Assembly: GCA_964540055.1 (NCBI GenBank)
Contig: CAZILC010000008.1
Location: 1 to 62,779 of the forward strand
DNA from: an uncultured Gammaproteobacteria bacterium
GTDB lineage: Bacteria; Patescibacteriota; Microgenomatia; Levybacterales; UBA12049
DNA length: 62,779 bases
Reading direction: 5' to 3'
Below the pieces are notes generated by a model. It made no database searches, had not been told where the DNA came from, and saw nothing but the letters and a program-made list of their open reading frames with translations. A program made the position numbers and the translations under genes. Position 1 is the stretch's first letter. Each line of letters begins with the position of its first letter. Below are positions 6,872 through 40,875 of this stretch, piece after piece.

Positions 6872-8170
6872 ATGAAAAACTTTTTACTGAGAAATAAAAA
6901 ATACCTAACATTTATAGTAGTTTGCGTACTAGTCTATTTAGCGTTTGGTTTACAAAAAACGCATGCGCAATCTATTACCGGGACCACTCCCTCAACTGTA
7001 GTTTCTCAAGCACCAACTGAAGTCCCAACAACTTTGCCAACCCAAGTACCTACTATTTTGCCAACAAATATTCCGACATCGATACCTACTGTTCTGCCAA
7101 CTGATTTGCCAACAGCAGTACCTACAGCTATCCCAACAGTTTGTAATCCATTACCAACCAATACAGGAACTGTTACAACGACCGTCACTCTAGGATCATC
7201 AACCAAATACGCTGTATGGAGCAGAATGATGGCTCCAAATACTAACGCTTCATCCTATTACCTGGTTATTGACAATCAGTGTGGTATAAAGGTTGGGGGA
7301 AATAGTCTCAGTGCTTTTTCCTGGACATGGGTTGGCTATTCGGACGGTTTGCCTGCGGATCGAGTATTACTTGATCTCACAAAAGGTGCGCACATTGTGA
7401 AATTGATTGGTGATACCCCAAATGTTGGTTTGGATAAAATAATTTTTACTCCTGATATGTCGTGTGTGCCAACGGGTCAGGGGAATAATTGTAATCAAAT
7501 AGTTACACCAACTCTTGTTGCAACAGCAACAGGGGCAGCACAACCGACGGTAGTTACCACATCTGTTGCCCCAACTGCACCTATTCCTACCGATACACCT
7601 GCGCCAACCGCTACACCAGTGCCTGGAACACAATTTGCAATAACTGTTTTAGTCCATGGAGTAGGTCACGGCGGAGATAATGTCGCTCCCCAAAGTGAAG
7701 GCAACAATGCACCGATTCATATCCAAAGGACTGCTGCAGTTGAAATATATGACAGTAATAATACGTTGGTAGCAAGTCCAACCGGAACCGTCACTTTTGA
7801 TCCTCATACAGGAATGTATAAGGGCGTTATTGCTGTTGGAAAAGCTCTTCCGGCTGGTGCATATCTTACTAAGATTACTATTGCCCATCATTTGAACAAA
7901 TCAGCAGTTAAGATTGTAACTATAACTAATGGAGAAGCAAATCCCATCGCACTTGATGCTGTCCAATTGGTAGCAGGCGATCTGAATGGTGATGGGAAAT
8001 TAAGCATAGTTGATTTCAATGTCATAATGGGTTGCGTCTCAGATCTTGGACAGGCTAAAAATTGTACCCCTGATAAAAAAGAAGCTGCGGATCTCAATGA
8101 TGACGGTGTTGTAGATCTTTCAGATTTGAATCTCTATTTTAGAGAAGTTGCAGTACAATCCGGTCAATAA
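6872..8170 (+). CDS. secreted protein with xxPT tandem linkers, a beta-sandwich-like region and C-terminal dockerin-like repeats
   Basis: Signal peptide ending HAQ, then 11 xxPT repeats. Two EF-hand-like dockerin repeats are present: GDLNGDGKLSIVDFNVIM and ADLNDDGVVDLSDLNLYF (about 7976-8140). Confidence 0.6.
   Translation: MKNFLLRNKKYLTFIVVCVLVYLAFGLQKTHAQSITGTTPSTVVSQAPTEVPTTLPTQVPTILPTNIPTSIPTVLPTDLPTAVPTAIPTVCNPLPTNTGTVTTTVTLGSSTKYAVWSRMMAPNTNASSYYLVIDNQCGIKVGGNSLSAFSWTWVGYSDGLPADRVLLDLTKGAHIVKLIGDTPNVGLDKIIFTPDMSCVPTGQGNNCNQIVTPTLVATATGAAQPTVVTTSVAPTAPIPTDTPAPTATPVPGTQFAITVLVHGVGHGGDNVAPQSEGNNAPIHIQRTAAVEIYDSNNTLVASPTGTVTFDPHTGMYKGVIAVGKALPAGAYLTKITIAHHLNKSAVKIVTITNGEANPIALDAVQLVAGDLNGDGKLSIVDFNVIMGCVSDLGQAKNCTPDKKEAADLNDDGVVDLSDLNLYFREVAVQSGQ
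7010..7141 (+). repeat. degenerate 12-nt tandem repeat encoding (x-x-P-T) x 11
   Basis: The translation reads APTEVPTTLPTQVPTILPTNIPTSIPTVLPTDLPTAVPTAIPTV. Confidence 0.8.
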
Positions 8171-18142: not shown

Positions 18143-19489
18143 CTAATATTGTGAACATGATTGTCCTGAAGGACAACCATTTGAATTGCAGTGACCATTT
18201 TTTGCTTGGCAGAGTTTCGTATCAAAACAGGAACCGGGAGCGCACATTGGTACGTTATTATTGGCACTTCCTCCACCCGGTCCGAATCCTGGAATTTTTA
18301 GAATATCAAATCCAATCAGCTGCAGAAATACGAAGGAGAAAATAAGAAAGACAAGACCGACTATTGCCGCAACAAGCTGCTCTCTGGCATTATTAAGCTT
18401 TTCCGGATTACCTTGGGCGGTCATCATTTGATACCCTGCTTTAATAATCAAGAGCAACGCAATACCACCTGAGACACTAAGAAGTACAGCAAATATTTTT
18501 TCGATAAAACCGCTGGGACTGGTGGAGAAAGCTCCAAAAGTTGACCCGAAAGTAAGGCACACGCCATTATTCCAAGTCAAACAGGGTGGTGATGGGGGTG
18601 GAGGAAGGGTGGGAGGTACGACAGGCTGACAATCCGCGCCCTTGACTTGCTGATTAGCAAAATCGTGTGAATACTGATCTCCTTTCACACACACTTTTGA
18701 GCCGCAGTCGAAATCCTGTTCATCAGGTTGACCTTGCTGGTTTTTTACTCCCGCTCCTGCAGAGCAATGGACGGTATTTTTATCTTTGCAGGTGCAGGTT
18801 GAAGAATTAATACATTCTACACCTCCTGGTGAAGCAGGATTATTTTGACAATAATCTTCGAGATTGCCACAAGAACCACTTTTGCTTTTGTCTGCACATG
18901 TCCAGGAATTATTACCTTGACCAGCTTTGCCATGGGTACCAGCTACGCCTTTTGTACCGTCGCATTTACATGTTTCCTGACAATCAGCTCCGGATATGTT
19001 TTCTCCAAATGATACATGTACCAGATTAGGGCCTGTTGCACATACTTTGTCCGTGCCGCAATCTTTGGCTTGTACTTCATGAGTTAAGTTATTGGTACAT
19101 TTAATTTCTGTATTCTGTCCGCTGCTATTAGGCTTGTCGCATATACATTCTATAGCTTTTTTGCCATTGCTGGCTGTACCTAATTGACATTCGACTCCTA
19201 CATATTTGGTAATCGTTCCGCCTCCTCTGCCTACTGCAGTGTCTTGATGAATTAAATTACCGGCTTTAGTATCACAAGACATTGTTTCATTGGGGCAATA
19301 AGCGTGGTAACTTCCGCATGTGTAGCCATTATTTTTTGCACCAATTTGACCTTCTTTATCACAATGACATTGTACCGTGTTTATATTTGTTGTTTGTGCG
19401 TGTATCACTTGGTTGAAATTAAGCGGGATCTGCAGGAGAAAAAATAGTGAGAAAATAAAGGCAAGAGGGAAAATTAAATACTTTTTCAC
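18143..19489 (-). CDS. secreted cysteine-rich protein fused to a C-terminal two-TM T4SS-pilin-like domain
   Basis: Signal peptide ending HAQ, then a ~270-aa Cys-rich region, a PPTLPPPPSPP linker and a pilin-like domain. That domain, IALLLIIKAGYQMMTAQGNPEKL...FVFLQLIGFDILKIPGF, is paralogous to ORF 27782. Confidence 0.6.
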   Translation of the reverse strand: MKKYLIFPLAFIFSLFFLLQIPLNFNQVIHAQTTNINTVQCHCDKEGQIGAKNNGYTCGSYHAYCPNETMSCDTKAGNLIHQDTAVGRGGGTITKYVGVECQLGTASNGKKAIECICDKPNSSGQNTEIKCTNNLTHEVQAKDCGTDKVCATGPNLVHVSFGENISGADCQETCKCDGTKGVAGTHGKAGQGNNSWTCADKSKSGSCGNLEDYCQNNPASPGGVECINSSTCTCKDKNTVHCSAGAGVKNQQGQPDEQDFDCGSKVCVKGDQYSHDFANQQVKGADCQPVVPPTLPPPPSPPCLTWNNGVCLTFGSTFGAFSTSPSGFIEKIFAVLLSVSGGIALLLIIKAGYQMMTAQGNPEKLNNAREQLVAAIVGLVFLIFSFVFLQLIGFDILKIPGFGPGGGSANNNVPMCAPGSCFDTKLCQAKNGHCNSNGCPSGQSCSQY

Positions 19490-20319: not shown

Positions 20320-20348
20320 TTGACAAGGTTTGGCACTCGTGTTATATT
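20320..20348 (+). promoter_or_regulatory. near-consensus sigma70 promoter of the hrcA-grpE-dnaK operon
   Basis: TTGACA (20320-20325), a 17-nt spacer, then TATATT (20343-20348). Confidence 0.6.
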
Positions 20349-20356
20349 ATTGCTAA
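20330..20356 (+). promoter_or_regulatory. CIRCE-like HrcA operator (degenerate)
   Basis: TTGGCACTC-N9-TATTGCTAA compared with the consensus TTAGCACTC-N9-GAGTGCTAA (8/9 and 7/9 matches). It overlaps the promoter spacer and the -10. Confidence 0.6.
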
Positions 20357-27781: not shown

Positions 27782-28078
27782 ATGGCAGCTTGTAGCCTTA
27801 ATGAGATTTCTACTGATTTTGGGTGTTTTCCCAACGATCCTGTCGGGTTTGTCCAGAAGTTCTACGGAATTGGTCTGAGTTTTGTCGCGGCGTGTGCCCT
27901 CATTGCTTTAATTTATGGTGGGTATGTCGTCATGACTTCACGAGGTAATCCACAACGGGTCAATGACGGGAAGAGTTGGATTTATTATGCGATTGCTGGT
28001 CTGCTTCTCGCAATATTTGGCTTTGTATTTATCCAAACAGTGCTCGTTGATATCCTGCATGTGCCGGGATTTCATTAA
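27782..28078 (+). CDS. two-TM T4SS-pilin-like protein (VirB2/TrbC-like, CPR type)
   Basis: 98 aa. The segment CALIALIYGGYVVMTSRGNPQRVNDGKSWIYYAIAGLLLAIFGFVFIQTVLVDILHVPGF aligns along its whole length with the C-terminus of ORF 18143-19489. Confidence 0.6.
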   Translation: MAACSLNEISTDFGCFPNDPVGFVQKFYGIGLSFVAACALIALIYGGYVVMTSRGNPQRVNDGKSWIYYAIAGLLLAIFGFVFIQTVLVDILHVPGFH

Positions 28079-28145: not shown

Positions 28146-31100
28146 ATGAAAAGATTGCTGCCTATATTTATCAGTTTCGTTTGTCTTTTTATTGTTTTAT
28201 TTTCATCGCCGCTCCCCGTTTTCGCACAAAATCTCAATCAGTCCCCGACTGACTCCCGCTGGGTGATTGATCCTGAAGTTACTTTTATCGGTAAAAATGC
28301 CCGCCGATCAGGAGATTTTCTTGACTGGACCCTTCAGAATTACAATTGGGTTTGTGTAAAGCAAATTAACGCCAGACAGTGTGATGATACCAATAATCCG
28401 ATTGAGAAATACTGGTCTCTCATCGTGCTGTATATCGTCGTGCCGATGCTTTTTGTGGTAATTCTTGCGACTTCCATCGTCATTATCGTGACGCGGGGGA
28501 AGAGTTTGACCATAATGCGCTTTATACCACGATTTATCGCAGTCGTTTTGCTGATTGTCTTTTCCTATTCACTTCTACAGTTTTTCTACCAGTTTACCGA
28601 CTTAATACAAGGTTTCTTCCTGCGGTCCAATATCAATAATCCTTGTCCGCCGAATTGTATTTCGGATAAAGATTTGCTCTATGTGGGTTGGGATTATACC
28701 AATTTTGTAGGTTTGCGTTTGCTGGGAGATAAATACGCAGAATCGGCGTTTATTTCGTTACTTCTGACCAAACTTACCGCACTTACTTATTTTGTCATGG
28801 TATTTTTACTGCTCGTTCGGAAAATTATTTTGTGGTTCTTTATCATTGTTTCACCAATTTTCCCGATCCTTCTCCTCTATTATCCCGTCCGTAATACCGG
28901 AAAAATCTGGATTGGGGAATTTTTCCGCTGGTTGTTGTATGCGCCGCTTTTCGCGATTTTTCTTAACGGTTTAGTGTACCTTTGGCGCAATCAAATTCCG
29001 CTTGTTTTTAGCAATCCCAATATTGGAAAAGCTGCCGCCATCGAGTATCCGACAGCAGTTAATATCCTTCTTGGCGGCCCACGCCAGCAGGTGACACCGA
29101 CCAACAGTGTAAATCTTGTTGAAACGTTTGCTCTCTACGTTGTTTCTCTTATTATGCTGTGGATTGTTATTTTGCTGCCGTGGATTCTTCTTCAGATTTT
29201 TCTTGATTACGCGCAAAATTTTGCGCCTGGTGATACTGCTGTCATGAAGACATTAGTAAACATGGCAACCACACCAAAAGGTGGTGGTTCTGGACCTGCG
29301 CCTGCTGAAGGTGGTGGAGGAGCAGCGATAGCGTTGCCGTTTGCTAAGAAATTCAACATTCCGACTAATATCGGGCCAGCGCCGGCCGGAGCTGCTAAAG
29401 AAATGAAGATCGAAAATGTCACTGCTAATCAGGCGACCTTTACCAGACCTGCTCTTATTAATACAGGAGAAATTGCGAATGCAAATGTAAATACCATTGC
29501 AAATGCCAATGTGAACGCTTCGGTCCTGAGTACAGCAAATGTCAAGCTTCCTAGCATGCGCGATATTGCTAAATTTGATATAGCTCTCAGATCAAATGAC
29601 GTATCCAAACAGCAAGAAGTTAGCAGATTCTCCGAACAGTTGGTAAAGATTTCAAATCCAGTCGTTGTTACGAATACGGTTGAAAAAGACAAATACCGTG
29701 AGATTCGGGAAAAACTAGGTCAGCAGAGCGCCACAGGAAATGTCGCTGCCAATAATGTTATGAAAGGCGCAAAAGCCTCAAACAGTAGTCTTAATAATGT
29801 TTCCAACCAGAAAGTGAAGAGCATGCTTGCGCAAATGGCAAATCCTAACTTGGCAACAGGTACCGATAAAGAGAAAATGACACAGCTAAACAGTATGCTT
29901 AAGAGTGCAAGTCAATCAACATCGCAGAGTTCAGTATCCAAGTCCAGTAAATCTACTGCTGCTACGAGCAAAGATTCGAGTTCTCAAATAAGTAGTCAAC
30001 TTGCATCATCTATTCTTAAAGTAAATGACAAAACAAGTGATAAAGAAATTCAAAAGATCAAAGATCAATTGCATCAATCTTCAAGTAACTCGGTAAGTAA
30101 GGCTGTCTCTTCAGCAATTACCACATCTGCCAAAGCTTCTACGCAAATGTCAGAAACACTCAAACAGGTTGCCAATCCAAGTAGTGTTACCAAGATTGAA
30201 GATAAAGCGCGTGTTGAGCAGCTTAGGTCCTCTCTTGAGAAGGCAAGTAAAGAAGGAAATACGCTCGCAAGCTCAATTCTTTCTGTCAGTGATAAAACAT
30301 CTGTCACTGATATTGAAGCACTGCAGCAAAAGATCCAACAGGCAAAAGAGAAAGGAGAACCAATCGCAACAGAAGTAGCAAAAGTGGCAAGTGCTACCAA
30401 TCTAACAACGCTGCCGATGATCAACAAAGTACAAAGTGTGAAGAAAGAAGATTATCAGGCAGTCAAAGATATGTGGAAACAAAACTATCAGGGTCTTGAA
30501 GTACCTCAGGGTATGGCAGGAAGTAGGTCCGAATGGCTTAAAGAAGATATTAAAAGTATTGATGAAACACTTGCACTTCTTTCATCACCGGATCAGGATA
30601 AGCAGCAGCAGGGTATGGATCAGGTTTCCAGTCTCTTACCGTTCCTTTTGGTTGGAGGATTCTCGCAAAATGAAATTATTGATTACTTGAAGGCCAAACA
30701 GGAAGCAGCAAAAGAAGTTTCCACATCACTCGCTGCTGATGAAGAAGATAAAGTCGGCATCACTACAAAAGCAACCCACGCAGTACAAACAATGTCAGCC
30801 TCAATGTCTGAGGGAACTGGCAGTGGAGCATCTGATGAGGACGAAGGTGAAAGTCCATTGACTTCAATCAGTTCAGTATCCAATGTCTCAAATACTACCT
30901 ACACACAGCCTGAAATTTCGAACGAAATTTTGAATATGGTCAATGTTAAAGTACCAAAACTCAGCGATATTGCCAAATTCGAAACCAGTGCTCTGAGGCA
31001 AGATACTTCCAAGACCGCAACGAAAGAGAATTTGCAAAATGTTCTGACAAAGATTGCAAATCCTGCACAAATTACTGACACGTCAGAGCGAAGTAAATTT

Positions 31101-32675
31101 GAACAGATTCATGAGAAATTACTCTCCGAACAACAGAACGGTAATCCAACAGCAGGATTCATTTTGAATGCGGCAATGAGAGCACAAGGCTCGGCACCTG
31201 AATCTGCAAAAGATACGCTTGCAAAGATAGCAAATCCATCCCTTGCTACTGCTGAGGCAGATAAAAAACGATTTAATGCGCTTCATGAATCTCTTGCAAA
31301 AGCAAGTAAAGAAGGAAATTCACTTGCGACCTCAATTCTTAGTACCAATGCAACAACTTCAGCACAAGACATTGAGAAATTGCAATCCAAGATTCAAGAA
31401 GCTCAAGAAAAAGGTGAAACTGTCGCAGCTTCCGTTTCCCCAATCCTTGGGACACAATCTCTGCCAAAAGTTAATAAAGTACAATCTGTCAGTAATGAAG
31501 ATTATCAGGCAGTTAAGAATACCTGGATGCAAAATTATCAAAGTGTGGAAGTGCCAAATGGTGGTAATCGTTCGGAATGGGTCAAGCAGGATATCGCCGA
31601 TATTGATACAACGATTGGACTTCTTTCTTCCGATGATGAACAAAAAGTACAACAAGGAATGGATCAGGTTTCAAGTGTCCTACCATTCTTACTTGCAGGA
31701 GGATTCTCTCAGACTGAAATTATTCAATATTTGAAAGCCAAACAGGATGCAGCAAGGGAAGTTTCATCGCAATTAATGTCAGATGAAGAACAGCAAGTTA
31801 GTGTTTCTTCAGGATCTCAACATACTCAAGCGCAACAGGTAATGACAGCCTCAGTTTCCACTAGTTCACAGGATGCAAATGTATCTGTTGATAACTCAGG
31901 ACCTGGTGAAGAATCTGCGCTTAGTACGCAATCATTGGCTGGTGCACAAGCACCAACGGTTGCGGTACAAAATGACATTCTTGTAAAAGCAGATCTGAAG
32001 ATACCAAGAATGATTGATGTTGCGAAATATGAGACGCGAAAAGTAACGAGCGACAAAGAGGAAGCAAATCGACAGGAAAAAACGCATGATGCACTCATGA
32101 AGATTGCCAATCCTGCAAAATTTGTGACAGAAACAGACAGGCAAAAGTATGAAGATCTTAGAGCAAAATTGGCACAGGACAGTCAAAAAGGAGATCCTAC
32201 TGCGGGTATGATTCTTTCTGCTGCAACAAGTACGAATGAGGGTGATACAGCAGCTGCATTGCCGACAGCCAATCAAACACAAAAAGTCAGCCAACAAGAT
32301 TACGATGAGGTAAGAAAACTTTGGGAAGAAAACTATCGCACATTGCCAATCCCTGCAGAATATGGTACCGACAGAATTGCGTGGATCAAAGCAGATGCTG
32401 CCTATATTGAAGATACGATTACACAATTAACAGCAGCCGATACAGAGAAACAAAAGGAAGGAATGAAACGCGTTTCAGATATTATGCCAATGCTTCTTCT
32501 TGGAGGATTCTCAAACGAGGAAGTTGTCGGATACTTGAATGCAAAAATTGAGGCTGGAAAAACAGTTCTTTTTGAATTGCAAAAAGAGGAAGAAGCAAGT
32601 GTAACAGTTGAGGCAAAAACAGGAGAACAGCAGCAATTACAAGCCAAAGAAGTAGAAGAAAAACCGGAAGAGTAG
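28146..32675 (+). CDS. giant (1509 aa) polytopic membrane protein with a triplicated helical-repeat tail
   Basis: Signal peptide MKRLLPIFISFVCLFIVLFSSPLPVFAQ, about six TM helices (nt ~28410-29205), a Gly-rich linker, then ~1150 aa of K/E/Q/S/A-rich repeats. It ends with tandem stops TAG TAA. Confidence 0.8.
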   Translation: MKRLLPIFISFVCLFIVLFSSPLPVFAQNLNQSPTDSRWVIDPEVTFIGKNARRSGDFLDWTLQNYNWVCVKQINARQCDDTNNPIEKYWSLIVLYIVVPMLFVVILATSIVIIVTRGKSLTIMRFIPRFIAVVLLIVFSYSLLQFFYQFTDLIQGFFLRSNINNPCPPNCISDKDLLYVGWDYTNFVGLRLLGDKYAESAFISLLLTKLTALTYFVMVFLLLVRKIILWFFIIVSPIFPILLLYYPVRNTGKIWIGEFFRWLLYAPLFAIFLNGLVYLWRNQIPLVFSNPNIGKAAAIEYPTAVNILLGGPRQQVTPTNSVNLVETFALYVVSLIMLWIVILLPWILLQIFLDYAQNFAPGDTAVMKTLVNMATTPKGGGSGPAPAEGGGGAAIALPFAKKFNIPTNIGPAPAGAAKEMKIENVTANQATFTRPALINTGEIANANVNTIANANVNASVLSTANVKLPSMRDIAKFDIALRSNDVSKQQEVSRFSEQLVKISNPVVVTNTVEKDKYREIREKLGQQSATGNVAANNVMKGAKASNSSLNNVSNQKVKSMLAQMANPNLATGTDKEKMTQLNSMLKSASQSTSQSSVSKSSKSTAATSKDSSSQISSQLASSILKVNDKTSDKEIQKIKDQLHQSSSNSVSKAVSSAITTSAKASTQMSETLKQVANPSSVTKIEDKARVEQLRSSLEKASKEGNTLASSILSVSDKTSVTDIEALQQKIQQAKEKGEPIATEVAKVASATNLTTLPMINKVQSVKKEDYQAVKDMWKQNYQGLEVPQGMAGSRSEWLKEDIKSIDETLALLSSPDQDKQQQGMDQVSSLLPFLLVGGFSQNEIIDYLKAKQEAAKEVSTSLAADEEDKVGITTKATHAVQTMSASMSEGTGSGASDEDEGESPLTSISSVSNVSNTTYTQPEISNEILNMVNVKVPKLSDIAKFETSALRQDTSKTATKENLQNVLTKIANPAQITDTSERSKFEQIHEKLLSEQQNGNPTAGFILNAAMRAQGSAPESAKDTLAKIANPSLATAEADKKRFNALHESLAKASKEGNSLATSILSTNATTSAQDIEKLQSKIQEAQEKGETVAASVSPILGTQSLPKVNKVQSVSNEDYQAVKNTWMQNYQSVEVPNGGNRSEWVKQDIADIDTTIGLLSSDDEQKVQQGMDQVSSVLPFLLAGGFSQTEIIQYLKAKQDAAREVSSQLMSDEEQQVSVSSGSQHTQAQQVMTASVSTSSQDANVSVDNSGPGEESALSTQSLAGAQAPTVAVQNDILVKADLKIPRMIDVAKYETRKVTSDKEEANRQEKTHDALMKIANPAKFVTETDRQKYEDLRAKLAQDSQKGDPTAGMILSAATSTNEGDTAAALPTANQTQKVSQQDYDEVRKLWEENYRTLPIPAEYGTDRIAWIKADAAYIEDTITQLTAADTEKQKEGMKRVSDIMPMLLLGGFSNEEVVGYLNAKIEAGKTVLFELQKEEEASVTVEAKTGEQQQLQAKEVEEKPEE
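29541..32675 (+). repeat. three in-frame composite super-repeats (A 29541-30938, B 30939-31982, C 31983-32675)
   Basis: Each copy starts VK[LVI]Px[ML]xD[IV]AK[FY][DE], carries IANP units and ends with a ~100-aa GMDQVSS..LPFLL.GGFSQ.EII.YLKAKQ module. Confidence 0.85.
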
Positions 32676-32718
32676 TAAGTCAAAATTGAGGTTTGAGAGT
32701 TGCGATTTGAGTATGAAA

Positions 32719-32745
32719 CCCTATTAGTAGGGCTTGTTCTTTTTG
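32719..32745 (+). terminator. weak hairpin plus T-rich tract after the giant gene
   Basis: CCCTA-TTAG-TAGGG followed by CTTGTTCTTTTT. Confidence 0.3.
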
Positions 32746-32774
32746 AAAATTTAGTATTTAATAGAAAGAGTAGT

Positions 32775-35700
32775 ATGTTTGGTAATATATTTAAAAAGGA
32801 TCCTGAAAATCCATCACAAACAGCCGGAACGAGTACACCAAATGCAAGTGTGCCACAAGCGGGTGCTTCCTCACAACCACCTGCAGTTCAAGCTCCACCA
32901 GTTCAAGATGCATCGGCACAGCCACCACAACAGGCGCCGTCTGCTTTTTCAAATTCGCCTGCACCTTCAGCATTTTCAAATAATCCCGCTCCTGCTCCAA
33001 CTCCTGATCAGGCTCCTCCATCCAATCTTTCTTCGCAACAACCAATCGATCCTGCAGCAAGTTCGCCTGTTGCGTCTGATACTCCGCAGGATGTTTTGCC
33101 TCCGACGCAAGAGCCAATGGATAGTACGCCACCAGCACAACAATATGGAACGGATGCTGGAACCCAACAAGGGGTTTCCTCACCTGATCAACCAGGATCA
33201 TCTCCAGCTTCCAATGGCGGCCCATCGGATTCGTCACAAGGTGGAGAAATGGCAGCACTCAGTCATCTTGATTCCCGCGCAGCACAATCTTTGACGAAAG
33301 CTCAGGAAGAGACCCGAAGAATCAAACAGCAATCAATTGAGCCTGAGCAATTGCTTTTGGGACTGTTATATGATCAACAAGTTTATAACATGCTCAATGA
33401 AATGGGAGCAGACGGGGGTCAGATCTCCAAAGAAATTCAAACTGATGAGAAAATGGGAACATATCAAGCACAACCGACACTTAGTAAAATCTCTTTGGAA
33501 GTATTTGATCAGGCATATCGCGATGCAAAAATGCGAGGCGCAAATTTCGTTGCTCCTGAAGATGTGCTTGTCGTTCTGTTTAATCCAAATTTCAAAACAG
33601 CGCAGTATCTTCAAAAACATAATTTAAAGAAAGAAACAGTTGTTGAGAAATTCTCCAAAAATCCGACAGTATCCTATGGTAAAAAATCAGTACTTGAAAA
33701 ATACGGGACTGATTTGACAAATGAGGCAAAAGAAGGCAAATTGGATCCAGCAGCAGGGCGTGATAAAGAGATTGACCGAATCATTCATATCCTCCTTAGA
33801 CGCACAAAAAATAATCCGATTATTATCGGTGAAACTGGAGTTGGAAAGACTGCGATTGTTGAAGGTTTGGCGCAAAAAATTGTAACAGGTGCAGTACCTA
33901 AAGATTTGTTGGAAAAAAGAATTATCCAGCTTGATGTTGCAGCACTTGTTGCTGGAGCAAGCCATAGAGGAGAGTTTGAAGAAAGACTTCGTGAAGTTAT
34001 TAACGAGGTTTTAGGATCCAACAACAGAATTATTCTTTTCATAGATGAGGTGCATACGCTGATGGCCAATGACGGTGAAGGTGCTTCAGGCGGAGCCGCC
34101 AATATTATCAAACCGCATTTAGCTCGAGGCCATTTCCAGTTGATCGGCGCGACAACGACAATGGAATACCGCAAGAACTTTGAGAAAGATAAAGCTTTTG
34201 AAAGGCGGTTCCAACCAGTAACAGCTGAGGAACCAAGCGAAGAAAATGCGCTTGAGATGCTTAAAGTGCTGCGTCCCAAATATGAGAAATTCCATCATGT
34301 GACGTTGCCGGATGATTCACTCAAAGAATGTATTAAGCTTTCAAAGAAATATATCGGCGAGCGTTATCTTCCGGACAAGGCAGTCGACCTTCTTGATGAG
34401 GCATCTTCTGAAGTGAAGTTACAAATTGATGCTGGCAATCGAGCAAATGGTGATTCGACAGTTAAAAAAGCAGATATCGAAAAAGTAGTCAGTGCGTGGA
34501 CTGGTATCCCAATCACCAAATTGACCGAGGATGAAAGTCAAAAACTCCTAAAACTTGAAGACAGAATTCATCAGCGGCTGATTGATCAGCAAGAAGCTGT
34601 ATCTGCAGTTTCTGAAGCAGTTCGACGCGGAAGAATCGGACTCGCCGCAGCCAATAGACCAATTGCATCATTTATTTTCCTTGGACCAACCGGTGTTGGT
34701 AAGACGGAGCTTGCTAAGACCTTGGCAGAATTATTGTTCGGTCGTGATGATGCAATGGCCAGACTTGATATGTCAGAGTACATGGAAAAGCATGAGGTTG
34801 CCAAATTGATTGGTGCGCCTCCAGGTTATGTCGGGTACGAAGAAGGCGGACAGTTGACCGAAGCAGTTCGTAAAAAACCGTATTCGATTGTTCTCATGGA
34901 TGAAATTGAGAAAGCTCATCCTGACGTGTTTAATATTTTACTGCAGCTTCTTGAGGACGGACGACTGACGGATAACAAAGGCAACACCATTTCCTTTAAA
35001 AACACGATTGTTATTTGTACCTCAAACATCGGTAGCTCAACAATTCAGCAACATTTGAGTAAAATCGATCCCAAAGCTAAGAGATCTCCTGAGGATATGG
35101 AGAAAAGCTTTAAAGAATTGCAGGGAATTGTCCGTGAAGAACTGACGAAATTCCTTCGTCCTGAGGTACTCAACCGTTTTGATGAAGTCGTTATCTTCAA
35201 ACCTCTCATGCCAGAGCATATGGCTGGTATTGCCAGGCTTGGTATTGCCAAGACAGCAAAGCTTTTGAAAGAGCAAGGATTCAATCTCCAGATAACCGAA
35301 CGTGCTATTGCTCAGCTTGCAAAAGATGGATATGACCCGGTTTTCGGTGCGCGCCCGCTTCGACGCTTGATCCAAACGGCTATTGAAAATCCGATTGCAC
35401 TGGCTATCATTTCAAAGAAGTTTGTTCCCGGTGATACGATTGTCATTGATTTCAGCGACAACACCAATGAATTCTTCTTCTCCAAAGGCAGTGGAGTTGG
35501 TGCTGAGGCGATTGCACCGATGACAGATGATCAATTCCGCACATTCCTTCTGGAACTTAACAACCCTGATACTGTTAAGAATGCTAATGACAAGCAACGC
35601 TTTATGGAAGTTCATGATCTCGTGGTTAAAGGTCAATCGGAAAATAACAAGACTGCAAATTCGATTTTAGCCGTCACAGCAGCGACACAATTAACTGATA

Positions 35701-37076
35701 TTGCAACAATTCGAAAGGAACTGGAGATTGGAAAAGGTAAAGGAGATGCAATGAGCCAGGCTGTTTTGGATCTTGCTGCAACCGTTGCACATCAGATTGC
35801 CGCGACAATTAAATTAAAACACATCATTTTAGAAATCATCCAGCCTGACACGATTGTCCAGCCTGTAAAGAAAGCACGCTTTATGCAATTGCATCAGAAA
35901 GTAACTGAGGAAGCGCAGCGCCAGAATGAATTGGCAGTCAAAATTATGGCCGTCAATGATACAACTCCAGCAGAAACAATTGATGAATTGATGGAGATGC
36001 TTAGAACCGGTGCTGCCAACAGCGAGGATCTTGCAACAGAAATTCTCTCAGTGGTTAATAACGAAATTGCTGAGGAAGCAGAGGCAGTTCATGATGCTGA
36101 TCCGGCCATACAGTTTAAAAAAGTACTTCAGCAGCTGATAAATCCATTATATCTTGCAGATCCTGAAGACAAAGCAAAATTCAGCCAAATGTACGATAAA
36201 ATCACCAAAGCAAGTAATTCAGGAAATCCCTTAGCTGCCGAAATTTTGGCAATCACCGATATCACTTCTGATGCGGATATCCAGAAACTCAAAATTGCAC
36301 TCGAGACTGCTGACAAACAAGGTGATCCATTTGCTAAAGAACTTATGGCGGTTATTAACGAAGCTATCGCTCAGGCTCCTATCAGAAAATTGAAACGGGC
36401 AATGCTTCTGATCTCAAATCCTGTTAGTGCCCAGACGCAGCAAGAGCGAGATCAATATACGGAATTACAGACAAAGATCACCTCAGCTAGCCAAAGTGGT
36501 AATCAGCTCGCACCCAAAGTTCTCGCGATTAAAGAAGGATCAACTGATGAAGAAATGAAAGAATTGCTCAAAGGACTGCAGGACGCAAAAGATAAAAATG
36601 ATGAGGTCGCATCCATGATCTTATCTCTGGTTGGCAATGTCACACCAGTTGAACAAACCGCTCCTCAACCTGCACAAGATGCATCTGCTGCACCAACGCA
36701 GGATTCAATACCATCACAGCCGGCTGCAAACTCTTCTTTTGATACAGCACCTGTTGCACCTACTGCAACATCAGCACCGCAACCATCGGTGTCATTCCAA
36801 ACGGCAACTGGTGCAGTAGTTCGACCTTCGCCAAATGTCGGAACAGGTTCCGGCTTCACACCGCCTCCGCCATTACCCGGAGCAGGTCCTATGATCGGAA
36901 CTCAGCCGACATCATCCCCAGTTGACAGCAATCCAGGTGGCGCAGCAGTAAATCCCAATGGCTCAATGATGCAGCCGCAAAATGCCTATAATGCATACAG
37001 TTTCTCAGGCATTCCGGCAAGCGCCCGCCCAATGGGTTATGTCTCTCCTCAAACCAGACAGGAAGATGTCGAGTAG
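32775..37076 (+). CDS. Clp/Hsp100-family double-AAA+ ATPase without M-domain or ClpP loop, with disordered termini and a C-terminal IANP-repeat extension
   Basis: The ATG at 32775 is preceded by AAAGAG. The order is a ~175-aa P/Q/S-rich N-terminus, a Clp_N-like domain, NBD1 ([16 protein letters not shown]), NBD2 ([32 protein letters not shown]), four ~92-aa repeats and a ~145-aa P/S/T-rich tail. Confidence 0.85.
35538..36641 (+). repeat. four IANP-type helical repeats in the Clp ATPase C-terminal extension
   Basis: The units begin [30 protein letters not shown] and [10 protein letters not shown]. Each has the pattern +.+F..(L/V)H/Y, GN..A..IL and T..DI..L shared with the giant protein units. 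Confidence 0.8.
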
Positions 37077-37335: not shown

Positions 37336-38049
37336 ATGACATTAGAACATGGAATAGAAAAAAGAGGTTTGTTACTATCACCTGCTCGTTTACTTGAAGG
37401 TTTTGGTACAAATCTTTCAAGAACAAAATCCGCTTCTGATCCTACAGTTGTACGTGTTGCTCATGCTGTATTTCATCATATACATGCAATAGAAAATTCT
37501 CATTGGAAAAGAGATACTATATTCCCATCAGTTTTCAGAGCCACACAACCGAATTTTACCAATATTGTACTCATGCCTGGAGCACGAATAAGTGATGTTA
37601 CAGTAAAAATGCCTGATGTACGTGCGTTTGCAGATCCATTGCGTTATGTCAGATTGACAGTTGCTCCTGATGAACCTGCTGTCCTTCAGTTCTCTTTTCA
37701 TGGTACACATCCAGTGATGACTGAAATACCACATCATCCTATCCTTGTTGCGAGTCTTATGGATAAATTCGCTGCTCAAACAGAGCAATACAGCAAACAT
37801 GGGAGCGCTTTTGAAAAAGATCGGGCAAGGAGAGATTCACTAAATGAGGATTTTATAACCGGACCTGTCGAGCAATATCTCGAAGCTAGGTATAAGTCCG
37901 GTGAAATGCATAATGGAGATTATCTAAATTTTTTTCGAGGAGTAAGGAATTTACGAATCAAATATAATGAAGGTTATTTTATCTCACAAGTAAACAAAAA
38001 TAGTCTTAGAGACGTTTTACTTGAAGGACTTGCATGTGTTAGACCTTAA
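37336..38049 (+). CDS. hypothetical soluble protein (237 aa), no recognisable domain
   Basis: Clean ORF with no TM segment and no motif I can name. Confidence 0.5.
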   Translation: MTLEHGIEKRGLLLSPARLLEGFGTNLSRTKSASDPTVVRVAHAVFHHIHAIENSHWKRDTIFPSVFRATQPNFTNIVLMPGARISDVTVKMPDVRAFADPLRYVRLTVAPDEPAVLQFSFHGTHPVMTEIPHHPILVASLMDKFAAQTEQYSKHGSAFEKDRARRDSLNEDFITGPVEQYLEARYKSGEMHNGDYLNFFRGVRNLRIKYNEGYFISQVNKNSLRDVLLEGLACVRP

Positions 38050-38138: not shown

Positions 38139-38465
38139 ATGAATTATGTGACTCTGCCTGTCATGCTACTTAAGTTCTGGTTCGTTGAAAGTCCGGTTGC
38201 ACTCTTTAAATTTTTTGCCTCGTTTAATTCCGCATTTTTTGAACTTTTTTCCTTGCCATTAATGTTTCGGACCTATTTTCAGCCACTAAAAAATGAATAC
38301 CGGCAGGGTTTGGTGGGTTTTTCTCGAGCAATTGGGATTTTTATCAAAACGATTTTTATATTTGTTGATCTTTTGATGTTTGCTGTTATTTTAGGTTTGG
38401 AAATTGCGATTTTTGTGTCTTTTGTGATGTTCCCGATAGCGACAGTTGCATTGCTGTTTTATTAA
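38139..38465 (+). CDS. small integral membrane protein (3 TM)
   Basis: Hydrophobic 108-aa ORF. Its stop lies 1 nt before the ATG of the next gene, which suggests translational coupling. Confidence 0.5.
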   Translation: MNYVTLPVMLLKFWFVESPVALFKFFASFNSAFFELFSLPLMFRTYFQPLKNEYRQGLVGFSRAIGIFIKTIFIFVDLLMFAVILGLEIAIFVSFVMFPIATVALLFY

Positions 38466-38466
38466 T

Positions 38467-40875
38467 ATGTTTTTGTACGTTCGATTTTATCAGTTTTATA
38501 GATCTGCTCTGATTCGTAGCATCAGGGCTATGGCTTTTATGCTGCTTTTTGCGCTTATTATCTATCTCATTTTGCATAATGAGTCACCCAAATTTGCGGT
38601 TTTTCTATTCAATCTCGTTGTCATGCTTGAAGTATTCTTTCATTACAAAATAAGCCGCGCTGTGCCCACGATTGAAGTTGCAAAAAATAAAAAAGAAACC
38701 ATGAATGATTCTTTCACGATGCAAGCACTATATGGCTTTGTTACGCAGCCTACCACGGAAGGAGTCATCAAAGAGTTAATTAAATATCCCCAAGTTAAAT
38801 TGGTGATGGAAAAAGCGAATATCACGCATAAAGAACTGGTGTTTAACAACATTGAGAAAGATGTGCTGGCAGAAAGCGCATTTGAGACAGCGCAGACTTT
38901 CAAGGGCAAATTTGTGACAACGCTTGATGTTTTTATCGCTTATCTGTTCCTCATTGAAAAAGATACCAAACTCTTTTTTGCCAAACAACTCAAGACAGCC
39001 GATATTGCAAATATCGTCCATTGGGTTCGCGTTACTATGCCAGAGGAGGAAAATCCCAAGAAATGGCTGATTCATTTTTATGGTGAAGGAATTGGTGAGG
39101 GGTTAGTTTCGGGTTGGACCTATGAAACTAAGAAGTATACCTCGCAGTTTACAAGTTATGCGATTCGGGAGGAGCCGTTGATCGGGGGGCGGGAGAAGGA
39201 ATTTGGAATGATGCTTGAAGCCCTCACCAAAGTCGAGAATAATAATGTACTTTTGATTGGTGACATCGGTTCTGGTAAAGAGACGCTTGTGAAAGCTCTC
39301 GCGTATCACAGTTTCGGGGGAAACTTAGGAGGCTGGCTGAATTACAAACGAGTGTTGCAACTTCTGGTCGGGGCTTTGACAGCTGGTGCGACCAATCGTG
39401 GTGACCTGGAATCCCGTTTACAAAATATCATTGCTGAATTATCTCATGCGCAGGATGTTTTTCTGTATATCCCGGATTTTCAAAATATTCTCGGAGCATC
39501 TGCGTATGGGTTGGATCTATCAGGTGCGATATTACCGTATCTTAAAGATGGAAATATGCCGATCATTGCGACCATGTCTACAGGCAATTTCAAAGCGTAT
39601 ATGGAGAAAAATCCGATAAAAGAAGTCTTTTCAATTATCTCACTTGCTGAACCTGAGCAGGATAATGCAATTCAGATGGTACTCGGGGAAGCTGAGAAAA
39701 TTGAGAAAAAATATGCTGTAATTCTTAGTTATCGGGCAATAATTAGCGCGGTAGAGCTTTCGGAACGGTTTTATCAGGATGAAGTCCTGCCGGGAAGTGC
39801 GGTTGCCCTTTTGGAAGATGTTGCCAATACTGTCGATAAAATGCCTGATCGAAAAACCTATGAGCGCACGCATCACAAGATGGTACTTGAAGAAGATGTG
39901 GTGAAAAAAGTTGAACAGACAAGCCATGTGGCAATTGCGTTGCCGACTGGCGATGAGATTCAGGTTTTGTTACATCTGGAAGAAAAATTGCACGAAAAAG
40001 TGATTGCACAAGATGATGCAATCAAAGCCGTTAGTGAGGCAATGCGCCGACTTCGTTCCGGCATGTCAACAAGTGAACGCCCGATTTCCTTTCTCTTCCT
40101 TGGCCCAACTGGTGTCGGAAAAACAGAAACAGCCAAATCCCTCGCTGATTTTTATTATGGCGGTGAGAAGAATATGATCCGTCTTGATATGAGTGAATAT
40201 ACGGATGAAAACGGCCTTAAACGTTTGCTCGGAGCGCCTCCTGGAGAAGGCAATGAGCGGGGAGAACTCACAGATAAAATTCATGATAATCCGGCGGCGC
40301 TCATTTTGCTTGACGAGTTTGAAAAGGCTAATCCAAAGATTCACAATCTTTTCCTTCAGGTTTTTGATGATGGGAGATTGACTGACAACAAAGGCAATAC
40401 GGTCAGTTTCCGAAACGCAATTATCATCGCAACTTCCAATGCTGGATCTGAATTTATCCGCGAGCAGATAGATAAGGGTGTGAAAATTGATAACAAATTT
40501 GAGCACGCTTTGATGGATCAACTGCAATCAAAAGGCATTTTTAAGCCGGAGCTTCTCAACAGGTTTGACGATGTGGTAATTTTCAAGCCACTCGGTCAGG
40601 AGCAAGTAACCCAAGTGGTGAAGCTGATGCTTGAGAGTTTGAAAAAGGATCTTGAGAAGCAGGATATCAAAGTATACTTTGATGATGCCGTAATTGCAAA
40701 AATCGCCCAAGAAGGCTTCGACAAAGACTTCGGCGCCCGCCCACTTCGCCGCTACATCCAGGATACGATTGAGGACATCATCGCCCAAAAGAAACTCACC
40801 AAAGAAATCGATAGGGGCAAGACTGTCACGTTTTCATTAGATGGAACAGGGGCATTGCGGACGGGGATAGTTTGA
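38467..40875 (+). CDS. membrane-anchored Clp/Hsp100-like protein with degenerate NBD1 and no pore-loop tyrosines
   Basis: Two N-terminal TM helices. NBD1 Walker A reads GDIGSGKE (39259-39282) and Walker B reads YIPDF (D-F at 39475-39480). NBD2 is intact ([17 protein letters not shown]), but the pore loop reads GAPPGEGNERG instead of [12 protein letters not shown]. Confidence 0.8.
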   Translation: MFLYVRFYQFYRSALIRSIRAMAFMLLFALIIYLILHNESPKFAVFLFNLVVMLEVFFHYKISRAVPTIEVAKNKKETMNDSFTMQALYGFVTQPTTEGVIKELIKYPQVKLVMEKANITHKELVFNNIEKDVLAESAFETAQTFKGKFVTTLDVFIAYLFLIEKDTKLFFAKQLKTADIANIVHWVRVTMPEEENPKKWLIHFYGEGIGEGLVSGWTYETKKYTSQFTSYAIREEPLIGGREKEFGMMLEALTKVENNNVLLIGDIGSGKETLVKALAYHSFGGNLGGWLNYKRVLQLLVGALTAGATNRGDLESRLQNIIAELSHAQDVFLYIPDFQNILGASAYGLDLSGAILPYLKDGNMPIIATMSTGNFKAYMEKNPIKEVFSIISLAEPEQDNAIQMVLGEAEKIEKKYAVILSYRAIISAVELSERFYQDEVLPGSAVALLEDVANTVDKMPDRKTYERTHHKMVLEEDVVKKVEQTSHVAIALPTGDEIQVLLHLEEKLHEKVIAQDDAIKAVSEAMRRLRSGMSTSERPISFLFLGPTGVGKTETAKSLADFYYGGEKNMIRLDMSEYTDENGLKRLLGAPPGEGNERGELTDKIHDNPAALILLDEFEKANPKIHNLFLQVFDDGRLTDNKGNTVSFRNAIIIATSNAGSEFIREQIDKGVKIDNKFEHALMDQLQSKGIFKPELLNRFDDVVIFKPLGQEQVTQVVKLMLESLKKDLEKQDIKVYFDDAVIAKIAQEGFDKDFGARPLRRYIQDTIEDIIAQKKLTKEIDRGKTVTFSLDGTGALRTGIV

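Follow-up and report, generated by a model that had tools for sequence, protein, structure and literature searches.

Clp1, a class-I Hsp100/Clp AAA+ ATPase, is encoded on the forward strand of a 62,779-nt stretch of DNA from a genome of the ultra-small Levybacteria (contig CAZILC010000008.1; this whole stretch is the window, and all coordinates are window positions in forward strand numbering). Beyond its conserved ATPase core, Clp1 carries four units of a repeat of about 92 amino acids (aa), the IANP unit, and the same unit recurs in the C-terminal extension of the membrane protein encoded by the neighbouring gene, a divergent relative of VirB6/TrbL of type IV secretion systems (T4SS). Profile comparisons identify the two repeat sets as homologous. 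It is plausible, and in our estimate an even chance, that Clp1 is tethered through these units to a VirB6-like complex in a functional partnership.

The IANP repeat in the tails of Clp1 and its neighbour

A sequence-only reading of this DNA had proposed that the normal Clp C-terminus is followed by four units of about 92 aa, and that the same repeat occurs in the adjacent membrane protein. Pfam ends the core after ClpB_D2-small, at aa 916, as that reading had placed it, and the four units occupy 35532-36662, a span that contains the earlier one of 35538-36641.

35532..35807, +, Clp1 tail unit c1 (aa 945-1036), seen only in four- and five-unit tails
35811..36086, +, Clp1 tail unit c2 (aa 1038-1129), with QP replacing the NP motif
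36111..36386, +, Clp1 tail unit c3 (aa 1138-1229), the most conserved unit, with a conserved INPLYLA stretch
36387..36662, +, Clp1 tail unit c4 (aa 1230-1321), a profile match

The kinship of the two repeat sets was confirmed from several directions. A hidden Markov model (HMM) of the four Clp1 units matched the VirB6-like neighbour with an E-value of 9e-56, with single units scoring up to 54 bits, and an HMM of the six VirB6-like units matched Clp1 with an E-value of 2e-44, while no other six-frame open reading frame (ORF) of the window exceeded 5.4 bits with either model. When the two profiles were compared with each other by hhalign, as the sequence-only reading had suggested, they were significantly related (probability 98.3%, E 1.2e-14). 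Pairwise identity between Clp1 and VirB6-like units is 18-34%, as high as the 17-29% found among the Clp1 units themselves, and the motif positions of both proteins are in register across 80-90 residues. Since both regions are helical and rich in K, E, Q, A and S, and identity is this modest, it had to be considered that the resemblance might be an artefact of composition or of coiled coils in two low-complexity regions. This explanation is refuted, and we regard it as next to impossible: 500 residue shuffles of each tail never rose above 8.6 and 8.3 bits, where the real sequences score 182 and 146, the motifs hold their register, and the profile matches are confined to two families in the protein collection described below. 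At the DNA level, comparison of the Clp1 tail with the VirB6-like gene and with itself gave best E-values of 0.19-0.2, and this lack of similarity rejects recent duplication, gene conversion and assembly artefact alike. An in-frame unit tail is likewise present on Clp1 orthologues elsewhere.

The distribution of the unit is narrow. An HMM of all ten units (four from Clp1 and six from the VirB6-like protein) was scored against 1.84 billion representative proteins at E<=1e-3, and the matches were sorted by the window's own flanking domains, namely the transmembrane domain, module 2 (described below) and the Clp C-end. There were 146 matches, and all those with a recognisable flank belong to the VirB6-like family (transmembrane domain and/or module 2) or are Clp tails (P0001, P0018, P0020 and fragments with the Clp C-end). 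No third protein family bearing the unit was found among the 1.84 billion proteins, some short fragments being unassignable, and no further ORF carried it in 84 loci; the repeat is thus far from ubiquitous, an outcome on which the sequence-only reading had made its case depend. A word-based search with the Clp1 tail retrieved only 3 proteins, and the exhaustive profile search was required for the wider set. Pfam and NCBIfam gave no match to the unit, and the best E-value of a profile search of the PDB was 0.035. By these searches, the IANP unit of about 92 aa is a previously undescribed all-helical repeat, and hence a new domain family, which is native to the C-terminal extension of the VirB6/TrbL-like protein of Candidatus Levyibacteriota.

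An AlphaFold model of the Clp1 tail (residues 887-1332; predicted local distance difference test, pLDDT, 80; predicted template modelling score, pTM, 0.61) gives about four helices per unit. In the modelled unit, helix 1 ends at the NP motif and helix 2 at the GN motif, helix 3 is short, helix 4 begins at T/S..D, and a long helix 5 runs unbroken into helix 1 of the next unit. With the last helix of one unit continuous with the first of the next, the four units would form one rod. A Foldseek search of the PDB with this model returned generic helical rods only (probability <=0.12, E >=0.8). The likeness to talin/vinculin-type rods and designed helical repeats, short helical bundles in a rod, is an analogy of shape only, with no sequence relation.

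The history of the units on Clp1 was reconstructed from a scan for relatives, limited to one genome per species, which returned 215; the locus census covers the 80 best, 84 loci in all were screened for units, and Clp1 was compared across the 67 orthologues from loci whose DNA reaches far enough downstream. Units are present on 22 of the 67, with 2, 3, 4 or 5 each. The C-tails of the other 45, searched sensitively for cryptic units, gave a best score of 3.6 bits, so these are truly without the repeat. In a neighbour-joining tree of the AAA core, the 22 unit-bearing proteins form an exclusive bipartition, in which two-unit tails are basal and four-unit tails make up a crown group that includes the sole five-unit tail. 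Unit c3 can be aligned in every Clp1 tail except for a fused N-terminal half in one locus (L024), its motifs are near-invariant, and c3 and c4 are the old pair. Units c1-c4 of the window share 59-79% identity with their counterparts at the same position in other species and at most 41% with any VirB6-like unit. The alignments thus identify the Clp1 units as positional orthologues kept under selection.

Moreover, VirB6-like proteins bear full-length units in 35 of 60 loci without a detected unit-bearing Clp1, which makes the donor type older than the capture. As all orthologues already have a disordered C-tail, the units must have been inserted between D2-small and this older tail. Overall, the bipartition, the positional orthology and the conservation indicate one old capture, of units of the full-length type, from the neighbouring gene, followed by stepwise expansion from 2 units to 3, 4 or 5 and by long retention. 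The repeat on Clp1 is therefore a derived trait of one monophyletic subclade and is not general to the gene pair.

Clp1, the VirB6-like protein and their shared locus

The remaining parts of Clp1 are as follows.

32775..37076, +, Clp1, class-I Hsp100/Clp AAA+ ATPase with N- and C-terminal extensions; likely start ATG 32775 (MFGNIFKK)
32775..33284, +, N-terminal peptide and low-complexity extension (P 19%, S 16%, A 15%, Q 11%)
33285..35447, +, AAA+ core: Clp_N, D1, lid, D2 and D2-small (Pfam)
36663..37073, +, C-terminal P/A/S-rich low-complexity tail of 137 aa, with an NG(S/T)xMQP motif and a clade-specific end

The ORF (32700..37076, +) is a single uninterrupted frame with a mechanical start at TTG 32700 and a stop at 37076; the N-terminal peptide M(F/L)GN(I/L)F, in its fuller form M(F/L)GN(I/L)F..KK, is kept in 59 of the 67 orthologues and favours ATG 32775. 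Pfam recognises AAA_2 (2e-69), AAA (1e-20), AAA_lid_9 (1e-24), ClpB_D2-small (3e-22) and Clp_N (1e-6) over aa 201-916, and Walker A and Walker B motifs can be read from the sequence in both rings, so that the protein has all the features of a class-I Hsp100/Clp: two AAA+ modules with Walker A/B, Clp_N and D2-small. All 67 orthologues have GYVG as their D2 pore loop. In D1 the pore loop has one shared form in 61 of them, with His at the Tyr position, and Tyr is found there in none; ClpB and ClpC have Tyr at this position. The substitution suggests that threading is done by D2. The ClpP-docking tripeptide [ILVM]G[FL] is absent from the D2 region of all 67 orthologues, and Clp1 has no M-domain, only about 60 aa separating the lid from D2. 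Two intact ATPase rings and the GYVG loop of D2, without an M-domain or a ClpP-docking loop, point to a stand-alone unfoldase or remodeller, and from its sequence Clp1 is best classed as a ClpP-independent Hsp100 unfoldase of its own subtype.

The known subtypes were each tried and rejected. The ClpB model TIGR03346 scored 857 against a cut-off of 1232, in two stretches that bypass the M-domain; the ClpA/ClpC model TIGR02639 scored 689 against 993, and the ClpP-docking tripeptide is lacking; the ClpV/TssH model TIGR03345 scored 646 against 885, and there are no type VI secretion system (T6SS) genes among the window ORFs.

Both ends of the protein are of low complexity throughout the lineage. 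All orthologues have a P/S/A/Q-rich stretch of 60-170 aa ahead of Clp_N, which in Clp1 is probably disordered, and the conserved N-terminal peptide (within 32775-33284) could act as a short linear motif or bind membranes. A P/Q-rich C-tail of 60-150 aa is present on all orthologues, unit-less ones included, many of which have ..DGTQMQP.. near the end. The motif NG(S/T)xMQP is common to many orthologues lineage-wide (NGSMMQPQN in the window), and the clade-specific end reads ...YN.SGIPAS.RP.GY..PQ..QE.VE.

Upstream of Clp1 lie the VirB6-like gene and a pilin gene.

28146..32675, +, extended VirB6/TrbL-like membrane protein; likely start M8 (MKRLLP), mechanical ORF from GTG 28125, 1516 aa
28146..29240, +, its membrane domain: signal peptide, Cys-containing segments predicted outside, five long hydrophobic helices (AlphaFold2, Foldseek, positive-inside)
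29625..30419, +, VirB6-like units g1 (short), g2 (Ser-rich insertion) and g3 (full)
30420..30824, +, module 2 copy a, helical, about 120 aa
31029..31478, +, VirB6-like units g4 (short) and g5 (full)
31479..31874, +, module 2 copy b
32079..32288, +, VirB6-like unit g6 (short)
32289..32672, +, module 2 copy c
27782..28078, +, VirB2-like T4SS pilin of 98 aa with two hydrophobic helices, directly upstream of the VirB6-like gene

Members of the VirB6-like family share a layout of membrane domain, linker, 1-19 units and at least one copy of module 2. In the window, three full-length units (one with the Ser-rich insertion) and three short ones are interleaved with three module 2 copies. Module 2 is found in essentially all full-length family members, with many near-invariant residues in the pattern ...EDYQAVK..W..NY...LPFLL.GGFSQ.EII.YLKAKQ. 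Searches of Pfam, NCBIfam and PDB sequences gave no meaningful match, and on this basis module 2 is a second new domain family. It is also a candidate universal docking site.

In the AlphaFold model of residues 8-900 (pLDDT 76), a signal peptide and five long hydrophobic helices are followed by a linker that is disordered and then by the units and module 2, all of them helical. Its top PDB matches by Foldseek are TrwI/VirB6 chains of the R388 T4SS (8rt9_F, 8rtd_L, 7o3v), with a weak E-value of 0.27, a probability of 0.93-0.99 for the best four chains, and a template modelling score (target) of 0.47-0.53, the top hits reaching 0.51-0.53. PF04610 (TrbL/VirB6) is matched by 14 of 28 family members at E<=0.01, with a best value of 8.7e-6; for one member, P0134, the score of 24.1 bits falls short of the cut-off of 25.9, and the window copy has no match at E<=0.01. 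The window pilin scores 26.5 bits with PF18895 (T4SS pilin; E 6.9e-6) against a cut-off of 26.6, and a PF18895 gene of about 98 aa precedes the VirB6-like relatives in nearly every locus that extends upstream. Taken together, the pilin neighbour, the PF04610 matches of relatives, the helices of the model and the TrwI/VirB6 fold matches indicate that the neighbour is an extended VirB6, that is, a VirB6 membrane core with a large hydrophilic domain, the function of which is an open question (PMC12857230). The tail of about 1150 aa beyond the last hydrophobic helix agrees with this definition. VirB4, VirD4, VirB3 and VirB8 were not recognised within the 62.8-kb window. A survey of T4SS in Patescibacteria recovered few VirB6 homologues from Microgenomatia, with extreme divergence as the suspected reason (PMC12102498); the present family is probably a divergent VirB6 that was overlooked there.

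The 80 best relatives are nearly all Candidatus Levyibacteriota/Patescibacteria, and the census gives a conserved order of dnaK-(dnaJ)-pilin-VirB6-like-Clp1-(dnaJ)-x108-Clp2. The pilin-VirB6-like-Clp1 synteny is kept in essentially all 80 species loci. Clp1 lies downstream of the VirB6-like gene in 67/67 loci that extend that far, and directly so in all save L002, where one ORF intervenes; two loci found independently through their Clp-tail proteins have the identical gene order. The sequence-only reading had called the shared domain the strongest argument that the two genes work together. The domain is not the sole argument and perhaps not the strongest: the synteny extends over 67 loci, 45 of them with a unit-less Clp1. 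Many of the related genomes (L003-L082) are deposited as 'uncultured Gammaproteobacteria', 'Sulfotelmatobacter', 'Acidiferrales' and the like; as they hold a Levybacteria-type locus, these are likely taxonomic mislabels of metagenome-assembled genomes.

The cluster includes dnaK, dnaJ and grpE, and the window also has hrcA and grpE upstream and nusA and infB downstream. Scans for terminators and for the controlling inverted repeat of chaperone expression (CIRCE) defined no operon borders around the VirB6-like/Clp1 pair. A degenerate CIRCE-like inverted repeat, TTGGCACTC-N9-..TTGCTAA, lies at 20320-20356 (+), with 3 mismatches and 0 expected by chance, and overlaps the best sigma-70-like promoter (TTGACA-17-TATATT) ahead of hrcA-grpE-dnaK. 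Downstream of Clp1 there is a second, degenerate Clp paralogue.

38446..40875, +, Clp2, with hydrophobic N-terminal helices and a D2 without GYVG

The D1 of Clp2 is degenerate (GDIGSGKE; pore loop AGATNRGDLE), its D2 pore loop reads GAPPGEGNERG, and its hydrophobic N-terminal helices are a possible membrane anchor. It is preceded by x108, a small conserved ORF at 38139-38465 (+) with no meaningful match in Pfam, NCBIfam or PDB sequence searches, and the x108-Clp2 pair is kept in most Levybacteria loci. Between Clp1 and x108 lies x237, a 237-aa ORF (37336-38049, +) without matches in Pfam or NCBIfam and without a meaningful one among PDB sequences; the other 80+ loci have no counterpart, and a lineage-specific insertion is its probable origin. 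Further away, a 448-aa ORF at 18143-19489 (-) includes, towards its C-terminus, a T4SS_pilin domain (aa 321-391, E 1.2e-9), and many loci of the same clade as the window have a counterpart upstream of dnaK; a 432-aa ORF at 6872-8170 (+) combines a PT-rich repeat with a dockerin type I domain at the C-terminus, which is unusual for the Candidate Phyla Radiation (CPR).

A proposed tether between the tails and its alternatives

The side of the membrane on which the VirB6-like tail lies is central to any contact with Clp1, and we consider a cytoplasmic location quite probable. In the AlphaFold2 model, residues 198-242 are one continuous helix, which gives five crossings. Positive-inside analysis of an alignment of 79 homologues shows two K/R-rich loops, TRGKSLTIMR and RNTGK, that would be cytoplasmic only under the five-crossing model, which also places the Cys-containing segments outside, the tail itself having no Cys. 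Agrobacterium tumefaciens VirB6 has been reported to be N-out, C-in, with which the five-crossing model agrees. Helix count and positive-inside rule together thus place the tail in the cytoplasm, where contact with Clp1 would be plausible. The sequence-only reading had accepted that a demonstrably extracellular tail, with Clp1 cytosolic and no export route, would speak against it; the five crossings and the K/R loops better support the cytoplasmic topology.

If Clp1 is tethered, the six C-terminal rods of its hexamer would project from the D2, or exit, side of the ring and hold Clp1 at the cytoplasmic VirB6-like tails, either by unit-to-unit contact or with both tails binding one ligand. The ATPase would thereby be concentrated at the pilin/VirB6 apparatus that it serves, and its service could be the remodelling or extraction of the pilin or the VirB6-like protein, or the feeding of unfolded substrate. 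In a more complete proposal, a minimal VirB2-pilin/VirB6 apparatus of Levybacteria would have Clp1 as its dedicated motor on the cytoplasmic side, the hexamer being held by multivalent unit contacts with its D2 exit face toward the VirB6-like tails and extracting or feeding pilin or other substrates at the cost of ATP, with tail-less relatives held by the conserved terminal peptides. In this full form the proposal is unlikely.

Several observations weigh against a tether. The 45 of 67 orthologues without units keep the synteny, so the units are dispensable for whatever links the genes, and the number of units on the VirB6-like proteins (1-12 in the locus census) is uncorrelated with the units on Clp1. 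In the AlphaFold model, the residues common to both unit sets sit at helix caps and turns. The NP, GN and T/S..D motifs, which lie where helices end or the chain turns, seem to define the fold and offer no evident surface for binding, and the shared residues may preserve the fold alone. Small CPR genomes can, moreover, keep gene order without a functional link. With regard to topology, the C-domains of some extended VirB6 proteins, such as TraG of F, probably lie outside the cytoplasm. The R388 T4SS, in its assembled state, has no more than two VirB6 helices, α1 and α2, inserted in the membrane (PMC9259494), and helix counting may accordingly mislead as to where the tail lies.

These points lend themselves to two alternatives. 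The unit could have been captured without any contact, a piece of the neighbouring gene having been copied into the 3' part of clp1 by local rearrangement and the resulting rod being useful to Clp1 alone, as a spacer that holds the C-terminal peptide off the ring, an oligomerisation or regulatory element, or a Clp1-specific client site. The units were placed between D2-small and a disordered tail of greater age in which the conserved peptide was already present, and this would fit such a use, as would the conserved positions at helix caps, the equal divergence of Clp1 units from one another and from VirB6-like units, which shows no sign of concerted evolution, and the fact that most orthologues manage without units. 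On the other hand, the donor is precisely the fixed neighbour of Clp1 across the lineage, and no other family has recruited the unit in 1.84 billion proteins, which the capture of a generic spacer would not predict; we regard this explanation as somewhat unlikely, although it is the strongest of the alternatives. It is also conceivable, at still longer odds, that the VirB6-like tail is extracellular, for instance as part of an episymbiont surface or host-contact structure, and never meets the cytosolic Clp1, the similarity being historical. Besides the two membrane helices of R388 VirB6, this draws on the topology of monoderm VirB6 homologues being called uncertain (PMC12857230), on a naive hydropathy count, which permits six segments and puts the C-terminus outside, and on the S/T/N/Q-rich composition of the tail with its expansion to 19 units in some relatives, such expansion being common in surface proteins. 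In the AlphaFold2 model, however, residues 198-242 form one helix, and the six-segment model places the conserved K/R-rich RNTGK loop outside; further, Cys is found in the predicted outside loops and not in the tail, and the same fold functions in a necessarily cytosolic protein. An extracellular tail is unlikely, and tethering of Clp1 to the VirB6-like complex is retained as the working interpretation.

Relation to known machines and significance

The closest comparison is with ClpV (TssH), likewise a ClpP-independent Hsp100, which is encoded with the secretion machine to which it is dedicated and is brought there through a docking element of its own and not through a general adaptor. Like Clp1, ClpV lacks the usual tyrosine in its D1 pore loop. 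ClpV, however, docks by its N-domain on a sheath peptide, whereas the candidate element of Clp1 is a C-terminal repeat rod copied from its partner, and T6SS genes are missing from the Clp1 window. ClpB with DnaK (through the M-domain) and ClpC with MecA/McsB similarly illustrate Hsp100 motors that are targeted or activated by extra docking elements, and dnaK, dnaJ and grpE lie in the Clp1 cluster; in contrast to these, Clp1 is without an M-domain, and its extra element is C-terminal, repetitive and homologous to the tail of a membrane protein. The VirB4 pilin dislocase, also a cytoplasmic-face ATPase, acts on the VirB2 pilin with VirB6 (model in PMC9259494), but VirB4 is not an Hsp100.

Extended VirB6 proteins such as F-plasmid TraG and the Rickettsiales RvhB6 paralogues resemble the neighbour in having a polytopic domain, at least five hydrophobic helices and a large hydrophilic C-proximal domain (PMC12857230). 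The Levybacteria protein differs from them in its cassettes of a new repeat and module 2, with up to 19 units, in the position of its gene within a chaperone cluster, with no VirB4 or VirD4 recognised in the window, and in an extension domain that is common to an AAA+ ATPase. In the searchable literature, no paper links Levybacteria with type IV secretion and no partnership of a Clp ATPase with a T4SS is reported; a Clp ATPase fixed beside VirB2/VirB6 genes, and bearing its partner's tail domain in one clade, has no counterpart there.

Hsp100 motors dedicated to secretion are known for T6SS, in the form of ClpV, and not for components of the T4SS type. If the fuller proposal of a dedicated motor is right, Levybacteria would possess an Hsp100-powered T4SS-like machine, an analogue of ClpV and the T6SS with a docking domain copied from the partner. 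The lineage-wide order of pilin, VirB6-like protein and Clp1, together with a repeat derived from the partner on Clp1 in one clade, provides a testable handle in the form of two soluble tails. What the tails of extended VirB6 proteins do is a recognised open question (PMC12857230). Finally, the finding bears on how a surface or transfer apparatus of CPR bacteria gets powered or maintained.

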